Source: a virus
Lineage: Duplodnaviria > Heunggongvirae > Uroviricota > Caudoviricetes
Reading direction: 5' to 3' (one strand)
Virus record (IMG/VR): IMGVR_UViG_2740892117_000010
Span: 1-21,412 of that record
Length of the DNA stretch: 21,412 nucleotides
Shown: positions 7,998-13,743 of the stretch, piece after piece
Layout: the number at the start of each line of letters is the position of its first letter
Numbering within the stretch: the first letter of the stretch is position 1
Made by a program: the position numbers and the translations under genes
The notes under the pieces: generated by a model
Told to the model about the DNA's origin: nothing
The model's input: only the letters and a program-made list of their open reading frames with translations
Databases searched by the model: none

Positions 7998-8387
7998 TCA
8001 GGCGGCTGCACCCGCCGGTTTCTCATACTTACTGATAGTGATCTCGACCTTCCCTTTCGGGATAACCGGTCCCCACTCCACCAGCATTCTTTTCACCTGA
8101 CTGTCGTCTTCCCACACCCCCGCGTGGGTCAGGGCGTCAAACAGCGCCTTGTTATAGTTGTCCAGATCGCGGATCCGGTTATCCGGAGGAAACAACACGA
8201 TCTCCACTGAAGCAGGTGCCGACGTTGGTTTCGGCAGGCGACGTAACTGCTCAACTATTGCTGCGCACGCCGCGCTCTGGAATTTGCGCCCCGCTGCGCT
8301 TATCAGACTCTTACCAGCAAACGCCCCTTTGTTGGGGTGTCGCCAGTACGTGTTCACGCTGGGCGGAAAAGGCAGGATCAGCTTCAT
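7998..8387 (-). CDS. rusA: Holliday junction resolvase RusA
   Basis: Conserved RusA signature (PPSVNTYWRH..., DLDNYNKALFDALTHAGVWEDDSQV). Confidence 0.9.
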   Translation of the reverse strand: MKLILPFPPSVNTYWRHPNKGAFAGKSLISAAGRKFQSAACAAIVEQLRRLPKPTSAPASVEIVLFPPDNRIRDLDNYNKALFDALTHAGVWEDDSQVKRMLVEWGPVIPKGKVEITISKYEKPAGAAA

Positions 8388-8710
8388 ACTTTCAGGCCCC
8401 TCTCATGTAACCAGTGGGCTGCACGCAGCCTGGCGTTTTCCTCACCGGCAAGCAGTGCGCGGATAATCCCGACCGCCTCGCTGTCGTCGTCCTTCACAGC
8501 GGTATGAAGCGTTATCCCCCGTGCCACGCCACGCTTTATCGTGATGACGCCTTTTTTCTCCAGTGCGCGAAGATGCTCCACCGCTGCATTCACCGAACGG
8601 TATCCCAGCATGGTTGCCACCTCCTGATTGGTTGGCGGAAAGCCACGCTCTTTCTGGTAAGAAATCAGCATATCCAGCACCTGCTGCTGGCATTGAGTTA
8701 ACGTCGTCAT
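8384..8710 (-). CDS. LexA N-terminal DNA-binding-domain protein (no peptidase domain)
   Basis: LTQCQQQVLDMLISYQKERGFPPTNQEVATMLGYRSVNAAVEHLRALEKKGVI parallels the LexA N-terminal wHTH as remembered; 108 aa, lacking an S24 domain. Confidence 0.75.
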   Translation of the reverse strand: MTTLTQCQQQVLDMLISYQKERGFPPTNQEVATMLGYRSVNAAVEHLRALEKKGVITIKRGVARGITLHTAVKDDDSEAVGIIRALLAGEENARLRAAHWLHERGLKV

Positions 8711-9360
8711 GCCGCCATCTCCCTGACCAGTTTTTCCGCCTGCTGGCGAACCTGCACCAGAAAGGCTTCACCACATGCCTCAAGTTCATCGCGCCCGATG
8801 TAGCTGATTGCCGGTCCCTTCCAGGTCTTGTCGAAAACAGCAATAGCACCAGCGAAGAAAGCGCCTGTCGGCACCTGCTTCTCATCCTTCGGGATAAACC
8901 AGGCAGGCAGTTCAAAACCAATACGCCCGCGAATAAAAGCAATATGGTCCGCATCTTCCGGCCACCACACTTCGCTGGTGGCAGCTTTGATCAGGAAAAC
9001 ATAGCGCCCGCCCTTATCACGCATGGCACTGGCATGTTTCATGATGTAACGCATGCCGGTGATGTATTGTCCCTCATGCTGACTGGCGCGGCTGTATGGG
9101 GGATTACCAAAGGCAGCACCTTTAAGCTCCGCAAGACGTTCTGACCAGTCATGCGCCAGCGCGTTATCTTCCGCCGTGTAATACGCGGCACATTTGGCGT
9201 TATCACCGTCAGTAAACAGATCCAGAACAAACGGGCCAAACAGGGTGTTAATTCCCCAGAAAATGTTGTCCGGCGTGCGCCACTGATCGCCCACTTCCTT
9301 CAGTTCATGGGCTGGTTTGTTCCGCAGTTCCACCAGCGCCTGGCAATATTTATTACTCAT
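8707..9360 (-). CDS. Phage Dam-like N6-adenine DNA methyltransferase, orphan
   Basis: Contains GNPPYS motif; ATG at 9360 overlaps the upstream stop (TAATG). The ORF-track start at 9393 is a likely extension. Confidence 0.8.
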   Translation of the reverse strand: MSNKYCQALVELRNKPAHELKEVGDQWRTPDNIFWGINTLFGPFVLDLFTDGDNAKCAAYYTAEDNALAHDWSERLAELKGAAFGNPPYSRASQHEGQYITGMRYIMKHASAMRDKGGRYVFLIKAATSEVWWPEDADHIAFIRGRIGFELPAWFIPKDEKQVPTGAFFAGAIAVFDKTWKGPAISYIGRDELEACGEAFLVQVRQQAEKLVREMAA

Positions 9361-9854
9361 TAAGCCCCCACGTAATTCCCTGACAGATACCACTCTTCAC
9401 CCGATGCAGCGCGCTTGCTGCTTTTCCGTAAACACCGCTCACGACGCGCAAGAAAATTGTTTCGCTCTTGCTGGGAGTGGCTTTCACGGAATGCCGCCAT
9501 CCACACCGTTGCAGCACGACGGTATAAGCCCCTGGACTCCAGTTCTTCCGCCTGGCGGGTCAGGCATAAAATCACCCGGGGATCGTTAGTGCCGACATAG
9601 AAATTGCGCACAGATCTGGTTTCTCGAACTGGTTGTGGTTCCGGTTCCTGCGCTCTCTCAGTCAGGCGCGGAAAATGTCTGCGTGTATCTCCTTCACAAC
9701 GGTGAGCCACACGCCCACTCTGACGTAACTTGCTTGCAGACTGCAGAACGCGCTGCCGTGAGTAACCTGCAAAAGCATCCGCAATGTCTCCGGAAGTACA
9801 CCCCGGATGGGCTTCAATGAATTTCTGAACGTCATTCAAAAGACTCATGATCAC
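9360..9854 (-). CDS. PerC-like transcriptional regulator (putative)
   Basis: C-terminal GLYRRAATVWMAAF resembles the PerC-family motif; N-terminal half looks wHTH-like; start overlaps the O stop (ATGA). Confidence 0.5.
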   Translation of the reverse strand: MIMSLLNDVQKFIEAHPGCTSGDIADAFAGYSRQRVLQSASKLRQSGRVAHRCEGDTRRHFPRLTERAQEPEPQPVRETRSVRNFYVGTNDPRVILCLTRQAEELESRGLYRRAATVWMAAFRESHSQQERNNFLARRERCLRKSSKRAASGEEWYLSGNYVGA

Positions 9855-10792
9855 CCCCTGAATCCTGCCGGGATCTGGCTGTAGTCCACGTTGTCGTAAC
9901 TGGATTTGAAGTACGGGTCTTCGCGTTTTTCGGTGTACGTGCTGACGGACGGCGATAAGCGCAGGGAAAGCTCATCCCATTTTTCCCGCAACTTCGACGG
10001 GCTGAGCACGTTACGGCACCAGAACGGATCGCGGCTGACGCGGCTGTACATCTCGCAGATTTGTTTGTGAGTACGACCATCCTGCACACACATCAGGCGA
10101 ATTTCGTTTGCCCAGGCTGTCCAGTTCGGTTCTTTGGGACGAACCACCTCGCCGTCACATTCGGCGGCTTGCTCGTACAGGGCGATGATTTTTTTCCAGA
10201 GCCACTGTGCGCAGGTCAAATCATCCTGCGTTCCCCACTGGCGCTTTTTAGGGCTGAATACAACCGCATCAGGATGGCGAGTTAAAAAATCCTGTTCATC
10301 CGTCTGCGTGTCCGGTTGCGAAGCGTCCGGACGAGAAGGTTTTTTATCTGACGGATCATGTTTTGATTTTACTGACGGATCCCCGCCAGATTCTGACGGG
10401 TGAAAACCCGCTTTTTTGCCAGATTTCGACGCATCAAATTTTGACGGGTCAGATTTTGATGCGTCAGATTTTGACTGGTCAGAATCTGACAGTTGAGAAA
10501 ATGCCGCTGCCTGAAGCTTCGCAACGTTAAGCTGATAAACATTCGACGCATTGCGGTTACCCTGGCGACGCGCCTTACGCGTTAACCAGCCTTCTGCTTC
10601 CAGCCGTGCGATAGCCGTTCTGACGGTACTCATCCCCGCGCCAATCTGACGGGCAATGGTTTCAATTGATGGCCAGCACACACCTTCGTCATTACTGAAA
10701 TCAGCCAGGCGGGCCATAATTGCCACGCTGGATAATTTCATGCCTGATGCAGCGCAACCATCCCATACATAGCCGGTTAATTTAGTGCTCAT
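9851..10792 (-). CDS. Replication initiator, O-like (N-terminal HTH, Ser/Lys/Asp-rich linker encoded by ori iterons)
   Basis: N-terminal wHTH typical of phage replication initiators; ATG at 10792 with GAGG Shine-Dalgarno; iterons within the coding sequence as in lambda O. Confidence 0.8.
   Translation of the reverse strand: MSTKLTGYVWDGCAASGMKLSSVAIMARLADFSNDEGVCWPSIETIARQIGAGMSTVRTAIARLEAEGWLTRKARRQGNRNASNVYQLNVAKLQAAAFSQLSDSDQSKSDASKSDPSKFDASKSGKKAGFHPSESGGDPSVKSKHDPSDKKPSRPDASQPDTQTDEQDFLTRHPDAVVFSPKKRQWGTQDDLTCAQWLWKKIIALYEQAAECDGEVVRPKEPNWTAWANEIRLMCVQDGRTHKQICEMYSRVSRDPFWCRNVLSPSKLREKWDELSLRLSPSVSTYTEKREDPYFKSSYDNVDYSQIPAGFRG
10350..10495. repeat. Origin iterons (about 7 copies of a 12-bp unit, tCAGATTTTGAC-like) inside the O-like gene
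   Basis: Direct repeats ccagattctgac, ccagatttcgac, tcaaattttgac, tcagattttgat, tcagattttgac, tcagaatctgac at roughly 15-bp spacing. Confidence 0.8.
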
Positions 10793-11140: not shown

Positions 11141-11706
11141 GCGTTAGTTTCTCCACAACCAGAAGCAATCGACGCCACGACGCCCGGAGCTGCACACTCG
11201 CGGGCGTCATTACTTTCTGAAATGCAAAAAATTTTGTAGACAAGTGCTGCATGCTCCTGCAGCTTCGAAATTGAGAGATACAGCTCGTCGTTAATTGCTG
11301 TCTTCTCATGCGGTTCCACTACACCGTCTTCGATTGCTGAACGAATCTGTTTTGAATAACTGCCGATCTGTTCAATGACTTCCAGCAGACGCTGGTTAAT
11401 ATCGGCGTTGTCCACATCCTCGACGTCAGGAAGAGACACAAAGACGCCATTTGCAGACTGCGCCACAGCATCAGCAATGAAGTGAGTTCCACCAGCACGT
11501 TGCAAAATCATTGCCCATCCCAGCGGGAAAATCTGATCGCCATCAGCACGAAGGCGGTTAAATAATGCGTTCTCTGTTACATCCAGCCAGTCAGCTGCTT
11601 CAGCGTAACCACCCGGCAACTTTGCGATAGTTTTTCTGACAGCTTTCACGTACCACTCAGGCTGTTTTTCTACTTTCCAGTGATGCTTACCCACGGTTAG
11701 CCTCAT
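11137..11706 (-). CDS. Hypothetical early-operon protein at the cII position (start uncertain: 11706, 11748, 11760 or 11808)
   Basis: ORF immediately downstream of cro on the pR-side operon; no motif I can assign; a GTG with GAGG Shine-Dalgarno lies just after the first in-frame candidate. Confidence 0.5.
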
Positions 11707-11731
11707 CGTTCTGTGGTTTCTGTTAATCGAT

Positions 11732-11932
11732 TTATCCATTAGATTTTTCATAAAGCTCAGGTTTAAATGGCAACCGTCCGCAAGTTCTATATGCAGCTTC
11801 TGCTGCACGTCCTTTTGGAATTAACTGGCCCGGACGGTTTCGCCACTGATAAACGGCTTCAGTTGTTATGCCGAAAAAAGCAGCAACTTTCTCAATACTG
11901 CCGAAGTAGCTTTCGATATCGTCAGTTGTCAT
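11732..11932 (-). CDS. cro: Cro-like HTH repressor
   Basis: 66-aa HTH protein divergently transcribed from cI; FFGITTEAVYQWRNRPGQLIP is HTH-like. Confidence 0.75.
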   Translation of the reverse strand: MTTDDIESYFGSIEKVAAFFGITTEAVYQWRNRPGQLIPKGRAAEAAYRTCGRLPFKPELYEKSNG

Positions 11933-12029
11933 ACGCCCTCCAAACTAAGTTTTATTAGATGCTAATTACAAATCTATCTTTGGTCAATAAAAACTAAGAT
12001 TACTTAGCAATTCAAGAAATGGTGCTCCT
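11933..12029. promoter_or_regulatory. Right operator region (pR / pRM with operator half-sites)
   Basis: Divergent cI-cro intergenic region with AACTAAG motifs at 11944 and 11992 and the inverted pair ACTAAGATTACTTAG. Confidence 0.55.
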
Positions 12030-12656
12030 ATGGAAACGGTTGGTCAGCGTATAAAAGCTCTGAGAAGAGTTACCAGAACGTCCCAGAAAGAATTGGGTAA
12101 ATTTTGTGGAGTAAGCGACGTTGCTGTGGGGTACTGGGAGAAAGACATCAATACCCCTGGTGGGGAGGCACTTTCGAAATTAGCGAAGTTCTTCAATACG
12201 TCAATAGATTACATTCTTTATGGTGCTGAGTTTGAAGGCAAACTCGTCACAAACATGCGCAGAGTTCCTGTAATATCGTGGGTTCAGGCTGGGCAGTTTA
12301 CTGAGTGCAGGGCAGCAGAAGTGTTTAGTGAAGTGGACAAGTGGGTAGATACATCATTAAAGATTGGTGATAACTCATTTGCATTAGAGGTTAAAGGTGA
12401 CTCCATGACTAACCCTAATGGCCTCCCAACAATACCAGAAGGCGCAACAGTGATTGTAGATCCAGATGCAGAACCTCGTCATGGAAAAATAGTCATCGCT
12501 CGACTTGATGGAACAAACGAAGCTACAGTAAAAAAATTAGTCATCGATGGCCCTCAAAAGTTTTTAGTGCCATTAAATCCTCGGTATCCCAACATCCCTA
12601 TCAATGGTAATTGCCTTATCATTGGTGTAGTCAAAGGAGTTCAATACGAACTCTAA
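12030..12656 (+). CDS. cI: CI-type prophage repressor (HTH-XRE N-terminal domain + LexA-like S24 peptidase domain)
   Basis: N-terminal HTH (QKELGKFCGVSDVAVGYWEKD); C-terminal S24 signatures (KGDSM serine motif, catalytic Lys region VKKLV). Confidence 0.9.
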   Translation: METVGQRIKALRRVTRTSQKELGKFCGVSDVAVGYWEKDINTPGGEALSKLAKFFNTSIDYILYGAEFEGKLVTNMRRVPVISWVQAGQFTECRAAEVFSEVDKWVDTSLKIGDNSFALEVKGDSMTNPNGLPTIPEGATVIVDPDAEPRHGKIVIARLDGTNEATVKKLVIDGPQKFLVPLNPRYPNIPINGNCLIIGVVKGVQYEL

Positions 12657-12840
12657 GACCTCTCTTCTCTAACTAAGGCACCGAACTAAGAAAAGTTTGG
12701 TGTTTTCTCTTGCCATAATAACTAAGTTAAGTTAGATTTTATGTCAAAGATAACGAACAGGCAGGACGCCCACGAAGTAGCCGCCGGTGGCGTATGAATG
12801 ACCGGATGATTCGTTAAATACTATGTGTAAGAGAGCGCAA
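12657..12840 (+). promoter_or_regulatory. Left operator / pL-like promoter region
   Basis: TTGCCA (12709-12714) - 17 nt - TAGATT (12732-12737); AACTAAG motifs at 12670, 12683 and 12719, matching those in the cI-cro intergenic region. Confidence 0.5.
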
Positions 12841-13043
12841 ATGAACCGTTATTTCACATGCTCGTTTTGTGGCGCAAACGAGCTGCAGGCAAAAAAATCA
12901 TCGCCAAAGGCGGAAAAGATGAAGTTGCTATCTGCTCTGAGTGCGTAGTCTTGTGTGTCGGAGCATTAATCAATATCAGCACAACTATTCAGTTCACACC
13001 AAATGAGAATGCGCCTTTAGATGCGCGGAAATCTGGAGGTTAA
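12841..13043 (+). CDS. ClpX-type C4 zinc-finger small protein, reading frame broken at an A7 run (12891-12897)
   Basis: Frame 1 from ATG 12841 gives MNRYFTCSFCGANELQAKK; frame 3 continues IIAKGGKDEVAICSECVVLCVGAL. Together they recreate the ClpX N-terminal zinc-binding motif (CSFCG ... ICxECVxLC). One extra A would give a single ~67-aa ORF. Confidence 0.6.
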
Positions 13044-13051
13044 AGAACAAA

Positions 13052-13327
13052 ATGAAAGTCCAGATTTTAAACAATAGTGGTGAAGTCGTTTGGTCATACG
13101 ACATAGCCGCTCCTGTAGATCAGAGCGGCGATAGCTGGACCAATGGGAAACATCAGATTATGGCTGGAGTTGTATTCTCTTTACACCGTGCTTTGGAACA
13201 GGCTGAAGTATTTCCATCAGACCCTGAATGGAAATGGCCTTTTTCTATTTGTCCAAATTCGGAGAGCACATTTCAGAAAATTGGTCAGAAAGTCGCACTC
13301 GAAGAGCATCAGCCAACTGTTTTCTGA
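13052..13327 (+). CDS. Hypothetical protein (91 aa)
   Basis: ATG at 13052 with GGAGG 13 nt upstream; 3' end overlaps a convergent ORF, so the C-terminus is uncertain. Confidence 0.45.
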   Translation: MKVQILNNSGEVVWSYDIAAPVDQSGDSWTNGKHQIMAGVVFSLHRALEQAEVFPSDPEWKWPFSICPNSESTFQKIGQKVALEEHQPTVF

Positions 13328-13490
13328 TTTTTTCAGGTAACTCGTCGGCATCGCAGAAACAACAACGCTCGATCATGTTGAAAGCCGATTCGTAGAACTG
13401 TTTCTGCTGAGTGTCGCTGAGACAGGAAAAGAGCGACGTTACGATGATTTTATTAATTGCATTATCAAGTTCTTTTTCATCAAAAGTCAT
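13245..13490 (-). CDS. Hypothetical protein (81 aa)
   Basis: ATG at 13490 with AAGGA Shine-Dalgarno; helical, charged composition; convergent with the 13052 ORF. Confidence 0.45.
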   Translation of the reverse strand: MTFDEKELDNAINKIIVTSLFSCLSDTQQKQFYESAFNMIERCCFCDADELPEKIRKQLADALRVRLSDQFSEMCSPNLDK

Positions 13491-13743
13491 TTGATTTTCC
13501 TTTTATGTATACGGGCTTAAAAGGATACCACCGAGCCTGAAGTGGTGAAAAGACAGGCACATAACAGCTAAGTATTTTCAACCAGAGAGAATCCTTAGCG
13601 TTGTGGTGAATGCGGCTCAGCGCACGCGGGTTAAGGTTGAGGCTGACAGTCGACCTTCTGTGGATACCCACCCGTCTGGTGTGCAACCTTCGCCAGGCAC
13701 CGGGAGGCACCCGGCACCACAACTTTATGCTGTGTGTAGTCCT

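Follow-up and report, generated by a model that had tools for sequence, protein, structure and literature searches.

In lambdoid phages, the repressor-operator system closest to the locus described here is that of phage P22. The six operators that occur naturally in P22 follow the consensus ATTTAAGATATCTTAAAT, in which TTAAG half-sites are placed 4 bp apart (PMC5175364, citing Watkins et al. 2008). Val33 of the P22 C2 repressor packs against the methyl groups of TTAA, and Gln37 is located in the major groove (PMC5175364). We examined P22 immC via the P22-type Lederbergvirus JEP4, in whose C2 the N-terminal domain, helices 2-3 included, hardly differs from the P22 C2 domain that has been crystallised. 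Phage lambda provides the other point of comparison. The lambda cI/Cro system has the same switch logic and gene order as the locus studied here, and its operator centres are likewise approximately 24 bp apart, whereas its operators are 17 bp in length and of different sequence.

The stretch of DNA analysed (the window, 21,412 bp) comes from a lambdoid prophage of E. coli, of the mEp460/CPS-53-like kind, and carries its immunity region. The genes for CI and Cro are divergent with a 97-nt spacer between them (Table 1), similarly to the c2 (cI) and cro pair of P22 immC, where Cro belongs to the same Pfam family. Among solved structures, the N-terminal helix-turn-helix of CI is closest to the N-terminal domain of P22 C2 (PDB match, E 5e-10) and not to that of lambda cI, while the C-terminal S24 autopeptidase and oligomerisation domain is closest to the C-terminal domain of lambda cI (PDB match, E 7e-28). 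In the alignment with lambda cI, Ala87-Gly88 falls on the cleavage site, and Ser125 and Lys168/169 fall on the catalytic dyad. Over its full length CI is 48% identical to the P22-type C2 of JEP4 (205 aa), and Cro shares 31% identity with the P22-type Cro. The protein accessions are WP_000450737.1 for CI and WP_000205494.1 for Cro. The gene after cro is CII-like and of the CP76 family (YmfL type), unlike the P22 c1 gene, and rexAB of lambda is absent from the window. In an identical chromosome in RefSeq the locus is surrounded by ymfL, yfdN/P/Q/R, integrase and lysis genes. The products of cI and cro are labelled there "LexA family protein" and "Cro/CI family transcriptional regulator", and the record has no operator features.

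The initial annotation had pointed out a recurrent AACTAAG motif on both sides of cI and had regarded it as an operator half-site. The exact heptamer is found five times in the window, always on the plus strand, at positions 11943, 11992, 12671, 12684 and 12720. All five copies had thus been recognised, of which one had been placed correctly (11992) and the others, given as 11944, 12670, 12683 and 12719, were each off by one. By itself the number of copies is unremarkable, as 2.2 are expected and five or more were obtained in 7 of 100 shuffles. The striking part is their placement. Every copy resides either in the 97-nt cro-cI spacer (11933-12029) or within the 185 nt 3' of the cI stop codon (12657-12841). 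The annotation had also asked whether the motif is equally dense elsewhere, and a search of the whole 21.4 kb window gave no exact copy on the minus strand or outside these two spacers. Together the spacers comprise 1.3% of the window, and by post hoc arithmetic the probability of finding all five copies there is approximately 4e-10. In addition, the longer pattern CTAAG-N5-TTAG is present at 11945, 11994 and 12722, three occurrences against 0.09 expected in the window, a number reached in none of 100 shuffles. When one mismatch was allowed, there was no enrichment in the window for either AACTAAG (41 copies against 57 expected) or CTAA-N6-TTAG (6 against 7.4). For the latter it is the exact or longer pattern alone that is informative.

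Alignment of the five copies revealed that three of them are the left halves of 14-bp pseudo-palindromes, CTAAGTTTTATTAG, CTAAGATTACTTAG and CTAAGTTAAGTTAG. With two flanking bases added on each side these become the 18-mers AACTAAG-N4-nTTAGnn at 11943, 11992 and 12720. The inverted repeat reported earlier from the cI-cro spacer was located as well; it is ACTAAGATTACTTAG at 11993-12007. The predicted functional unit is thus an 18-bp pseudo-palindrome, AACTAAG-N4-CTTAGnn, with the 14-bp core CTAAG-N4-nTTAG, and on sequence comparison AACTAAG is very probably the half-site of the predicted CI operators, namely their better-conserved left half. The P22 operators, ATTTAAG-N4-CTTAAAT, have the same 18-bp layout of 7+4+7 and share the core TAAG-N4-CTTA. 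Here AACTAAG corresponds to the P22 ATTTAAG, and the half-site is CTAAG instead of TTAAG, with C replacing T at the outer base.

Two sets of related loci were used to follow these sites. The homoimmune set consists of 80 viral contigs in which CI is 100% identical in 79 and 99% in one. No substitutions were found in this set in the CTAAG/TTAG cores of OR1, OR3 and OL1 (Table 1), and variation occurs just outside them, including A to G changes in the leading AA at 11944, 12685 and 12721. The earlier half-site proposal is upheld by comparison, with the correction that the conserved core is CTAAG-N4-(C)TTAG rather than the heptamer, the leading AA being variable among homoimmune phages. The second set comprises 20 relatives with CI identities of 63-90% from Enterobacter, Kosakonia, Kluyvera, Serratia, Rahnella, Yersinia, Rouxiella, Providencia and Proteus. 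All 20 keep CTAAG-N4-(C)TTAG at OR1, OR3 and OL1 together with the promoter hexamers, while the flanks have diverged, so the operator sites and their overlaps with the promoters are conserved from Escherichia to Proteus. A weight matrix was trained on the orthologous OR1, OR3 and OL1 sites of these relatives from other genera, with the window itself and mEp460 excluded. Its four best places in the window are, in descending order, 12720, 11943, 11992 and 12684 (Table 1), and they stand far above background. The best non-overlapping place elsewhere in the window scores 7 bits, and a match of 8.2 bits at 12725 is OL1 read in a shifted register.

Table 1. Predicted operators, predicted promoters and neighbouring features of the cro-cI region (window coordinates).
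Feature	Position	Core	Strand	Sequence	Matrix score (bits)	Remarks
cro	11732..11932		-			66 aa; divergent from cI; Pfam P22_Cro, E 4e-11
OR1	11943..11960	11945-11958		AACTAAGTTTTATTAGAT	25.5	Exact CTAA-N6-TTAG; second score in window
PR for cro, predicted	11959..11987		-			-35 TTGACC (11987-11982), 17-nt spacer, -10 TAGCAT (11964-11959); consensus scan
OR2, predicted, weak	11967..11984	11969-11982		TACAAATCTATCTTTGGT, core CAAATCTATCTTTG	3-5.5, within upper noise	Position deduced from P22
OR3	11992..12009	11994-12007		AACTAAGATTACTTAGCA	21	Exact CTAA-N6-TTAG
cI repressor	12030..12656		+			208-aa ORF; Pfam HTH_3 and Peptidase_S24
Orphan AACTAAG	12671..12677		+		-10	No right half
Terminator-like hairpin after cI	12675..12706		+			13-bp stem, loop AAGAAA, U-rich 3' side
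OL2	12684..12701	12686-12699		AACTAAGAAAAGTTTGGT	12-14	Fourth score in window
pL, predicted	12710..12738		+			-35 TTGCCA, 17-nt spacer, -10 TAGATT; consensus scan
OL1	12720..12737	12722-12735		AACTAAGTTAAGTTAGAT	27	Best score in window

The two strong sites of the predicted right operator, OR1 and OR3, are 49 bp apart. OR1 abuts the -10 hexamer of the predicted PR, overlaps its last 2 nt and covers the predicted start of the cro transcript. OR3 is the most symmetric of the sites and the best-conserved block in the OR alignment of the relatives, and it is situated upstream of the PR -35, 20 nt before the ATG of cI, whereas the OR3 of the P22-type phage abuts the ATG. The PR hexamers are conserved in the relatives as TTGACC/TAATAT. 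It should be kept in mind that promoter-like sites found by the consensus scan are as numerous in the window as in shuffled sequences, and PR and pL are to be read as consensus matches.

The comparison with P22 suggests a third site between the strong ones, which had been overlooked in the earlier list of sites. In JEP4 the 18-mers of OR1, OR2 and OR3 start at 0, 24 and 48 bp; in the window the corresponding values are 0, 24 and 49, the middle one being the weak predicted OR2, whose start lies at exactly the P22 OR2 offset from that of OR1. This position overlaps the spacer of PR and the last 3 nt of its -35. In JEP4, too, OR1 overlaps the last 2 nt of the -10 of PR and OR2 the last 3 nt of the -35. 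At 3-5.5 bits, the middle site ranks about 11-17 among the 42790 positions scored, within the upper noise, and such a value carries meaning only in that the P22 geometry had already dictated where to look. The Rahnella orthologue of OR2 is the full CTAATCTTTATTAG. As for the promoter of cI, the consensus scan gave no candidate for PRM and no convincing -35. By analogy with P22 and lambda, the -10 of PRM is probably TAAGAT inside OR3.

On the other side of cI, OL1 is located in the spacer of the predicted pL and overlaps its -10. As in JEP4, its 18-mer starts 4 nt after the pL -35. In the relatives pL is conserved as TTGACC-17-TAGATT and is followed by a conserved segment resembling a pL leader. 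OL2 lies just upstream, the distance between the starts of OL2 and OL1 being 36 bp in the window and 35 bp in JEP4. The overlap with the pL-like spacer described earlier applies to the copy at 12720, and not to those at 12671 and 12684, which are upstream of the -35 and in or next to a hairpin.

While P22 has OL1-3, the window is without a clear OL3. The copy at 12671 was considered for this role and rejected. It has no right half, its matrix score is negative (Table 1), it is unconserved, and it starts 13 bp from the start of OL2, so that two dimers could not sit side by side. In its place mEp460 has AACCAAA and 7 of the 80 homoimmune loci have AACCAAG, and LLS and mEp460 are without this copy or have it at a different spacing. 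Judged from these sequence features, it is probably no functional dimer site.

The hairpin after cI deserves separate attention. Its predicted RNA fold has an energy of -15.1 kcal/mol (z -3.75), and none of 200 shuffles was as good. Eleven of its pairs are kept in 10 relatives, where several single changes are G-U-compatible and one pair is compensatory, which argues for an RNA structure on the cI strand, i.e. a terminator. Indeed, the stem-loop, the U tract, the proximity to the stop codon and the conserved pairing are those of a putative Rho-independent terminator. The hairpin was absent from the output of a simple terminator scan of the window. Rfam yielded no RNA family either, whether for 11500-13500 with E<=1 or for the full window with gathering thresholds, and no tRNAs were found in the window. 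In the P22-type phage the terminator is separate and G+C-rich, whereas here it is fused with OL2. Within the hairpin, the consensus left half of OL2, CTAAG, runs from the end of the 5' arm into the loop, and the 3' arm is formed by the right half, the degenerate GTTTG.

This arrangement raises the question of whether the copies at 12684 and 12671 owe their presence to the cI terminator alone, in which case neither would be a repressor site and the site at 12720 would be the sole OL operator. Both lie within or next to a hairpin that changes in the manner of RNA, the right half at 12684 reads as a stem arm (GTTTG) rather than CTTAG, and in the homoimmune set the core at 12686 is CCAAG in 5 of the 80 loci, in addition to the loss of the 12671 copy noted above. 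A terminator here could account on its own for some of the conservation of OL2. A terminator loop, however, need not keep CTAAG, yet in the 10 relatives CTAA is invariant and the G is retained in at least 90%, which we read as a second constraint, i.e. that of an operator. In Yersinia and Providencia relatives this place is without the hairpin, and OL2 is there a full CTAAG-N5-TTAG, spaced from OL1 as in the window. The distance from the 12684 site to OL1 also matches that between OL2 and OL1 of P22, and its matrix score is well over background. Taken for both copies together, the explanation by the terminator is unlikely, though it retains some weight; for the 12671 copy it is probably correct. 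The site at 12684 is accordingly listed as OL2, with the amendment to the initial annotation that it is also part of the cI terminator.

A motif search in heteroimmune relatives had been proposed earlier as a check on the motif. Helix-3 of CI reads GVSDVAVGYWE, against GVSNVAISQWE in the P22 type. CI Val31 aligns with P22 Val33 and the differences are D30/N32, V33/I35, G34/S36 and Y35/Q37, so that Asp30, Gly34 and Tyr35 replace Asn32, Ser36 and Gln37. Because of these four differences, this phage and P22 are expected to be heteroimmune. P22 immunity specificity itself was ruled out for the window on two grounds, the half-site (CTAAG, not TTAAG) and the helix-3 sequence. In a table of 57 loci with C2-like repressors, helix-3 was compared with the TAAG-N4-CTTA-like sites upstream. 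Repressors with the signature GVS[NH][VA]A[IV]SQWE (P22 type, Photorhabdus, Xenorhabdus) are associated with the half-site TTAAG, and those with GVSDV[ATS]VGYWE, the immunity type of the window, with CTAAG. GTAAG was found with GVNRVTVTGWE and GVSRVSVSLWE (Morganella, Proteus, Aliivibrio), and ATAAG with GVEQPVISQLE (Pseudomonas). All classes keep the core TAAG-N4-CTTA, and the base 5' of TAAG varies between T, C, G and A. In the proposed search over the 57 loci, the half-site changes with the recognition helix of CI, and a motif that changes in step with the repressor is what would be expected of the operator of that repressor. It is conceivable, although we put it forward only tentatively, that in the P22-C2-like family the core is fixed and specificity is largely set by the single base 5' of TAAG, tied to the helix-3 signature. 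If so, the pair of CI and operator described here would be one state of a simple and swappable one-base immunity code.

The same covariation bears on the suggestion that the sites are real but recognised by another protein instead of CI, be it Cro alone, the CII-like YmfL/CP76 protein or a host factor. Cro and a protein of the CP76 family are encoded next door, and in lambdoid phages Cro shares operators with CI. Sharing of CI sites by Cro is, however, part of the explanation favoured here and no rival to it. In lambda, CII-type activators work at promoters inside or beyond cro and not at the -10 regions of PR and pL. The layout is that of the P22 c2 operators, CI is a C2 homologue, and it is with the recognition helix of CI that the half-site changes across heteroimmune relatives. 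Binding by another protein in place of CI is therefore improbable. As to mere chance in A+T-rich spacers, or a functionless relic of duplication, such an origin of the AACTAAG copies could appeal to the base composition and to a count that 7 of 100 shuffles match, but it is hardly credible and is already contradicted by the comparative sequence data, with three exact 14-mers against 0.09 expected, positions conserved across at least nine genera while the flanks have diverged, precise register with the predicted promoters and with P22, and a half-site that covaries with the recognition helix.

What is left is a repressor switch of a familiar kind, and we hold with considerable confidence that the immunity region is a heteroimmune homologue of P22 immC in which CI would repress via AACTAAG-N4-CTTAGnn sites at OR and OL. 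The assignment of the two AACTAAG clusters to OR and OL, made in the initial annotation, agrees with the P22 layout and register, the weight matrix and the helix covariation, and fails for the copy at 12671. As far as sequence analysis can tell, several hallmarks of a P22 C2-type lambdoid switch are present, namely the divergent genes, a C2 homologue, 18-bp putative operators, their overlap with the predicted promoters and the covariation. In the proposed scheme CI dimers would bind the 18-bp pseudo-palindromes via the P22-C2-like helix-turn-helix. Occupation of OR1 and the weak OR2 would turn off PR and with it cro, the cII-like gene and the replication genes. OR2 is presumably lower in the order of affinity and would probably be filled cooperatively via the lambda-like C-terminal domain; with such a domain pairwise cooperativity is plausible, and it would account for the weakness of OR2. 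OR3 probably overlaps PRM and would mediate negative autoregulation. At the left operator, OL1 in the spacer and -10 of pL and OL2 just upstream would together block pL. Cro, of the P22_Cro family, presumably binds the same operators. Stimulated by RecA, CI would cleave itself at Ala87-Gly88, which would relieve the repression and induce the prophage.

The switch thus belongs to the known P22 C2-type family; its specificity variant is previously undescribed and biologically ordinary. It confirms standard expectations for lambdoid switches and overturns nothing. In the open-access literature no paper was found that contains these site sequences or describes operators of this immunity type, and operator annotation is lacking in the records of mEp460_4F5, LLS and E. 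coli that were opened. Knowledge of the operator sequence makes superinfection immunity groups predictable from sequence and supports the design of reporters and induction-proof lysogens. For studies of DNA recognition by helix-turn-helix proteins, the locus also offers a naturally occurring counterpart, with altered specificity, of the well-studied P22 c2-operator complex. A modestly novel by-product is the pattern seen throughout the family, in which the core TAAG-N4-CTTA is fixed and a single outer base covaries with the recognition helix.

The immunity region is frequent in E. coli genomes and is carried by several isolated phages. Its description is useful for annotation. A 1.2-kb cro-cI probe has matches in 1418 of 5426 complete E. 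coli genomes, approximately a quarter, and is 100% identical in many chromosomes. Among isolated phages, the same 1.2-kb query is 92-93% covered at 99% identity in vB_EcoS-569R4 and vB_EcoM-689R6, and 66% covered at 99% identity in Kati. In mEp460_4F5 the coverage is 92-93% as well, at 96% identity, and in the more distant LLS it is 77.5% with 80% of the query covered. The sequences of mEp460_4F5 and LLS were read directly, and the operator sites are present in both.

A segment of roughly 60 bp that closely follows the predicted pL start (see the table below) is found with 88-98% identity in otherwise unrelated phages, among them ST64B, SfII, Eeyore, Flotzy and PhiR29. It contains the motif CAGGCAGGACGC, which is similar to the sequence at which the pL transcripts of lambda and P22 begin (CAGCAGGACGC; seen in JEP4, a P22-type phage used as a stand-in for P22, and in ECP1). 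The segment probably represents a conserved element of the pL leader, for which Rfam contains no matching family.

Features downstream of pL and in the nin-like and replication regions; coordinates of the LexA family and methyltransferase genes were converted from the identical E. coli chromosome (L165)
Feature	Position	Strand	Description
Conserved segment	12754-12813	+	roughly 60 bp, just downstream of predicted pL start
First ORF after pL	12841-13043	+	small protein, ClpX-type C4 zinc finger
LexA family protein	~8384-8710	-	stand-alone, 108 aa, nin-like region
N6-adenine methyltransferase	~8707-9360	-	phage type, adjoins LexA family gene
Replication-initiator-like gene	9851-10792	-	HTH, 313 aa
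Tandem repeats	10420-10483		four x 15 bp, consensus CAGATTTTGACGCGT, inside replication-initiator-like gene

The product of the first ORF after pL, where RefSeq annotates no gene, carries a zinc-finger motif, CSFC...CSEC, that Pfam matches to zf-C4_ClpX (E 2e-4, under the curated cut-off). In the window an A7 run, which begins at ~12891, places the two parts of this ORF in different frames. Among related loci having the ORF segment, four share A7 and five have A8, giving an intact ORF of 67 aa.

The OR sites are kept in the relatives L091, L092, L094, L095 and L105 (Rouxiella, a Serratia MAG and a Gammaproteobacteria MAG). The OL/pL block is absent 3' of cI in these loci, where only a strong terminator is found, so that in this lineage the left operon either has another organisation or has been lost. 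In two Proteus loci (L097 and L098) the CI recognition helix reads GVSGVAVGYWE (Asp to Gly), and both OR and OL contain a mixture of ATAAG and CTAAG half-sites; such a combination may represent an intermediate specificity state inside the CTAAG class.

The tandem repeats look like iterons of a replication origin that lies within an O-like gene, the arrangement found in lambda. In the nin-like region, the position of the LexA family gene is matched in mEp460_4F5, an isolated phage with the same immunity region, by a 108-aa gene with a LexA-type label. In the annotation of the identical E. coli chromosome, the adjoining methyltransferase gene has an internal stop and is marked as a pseudogene.
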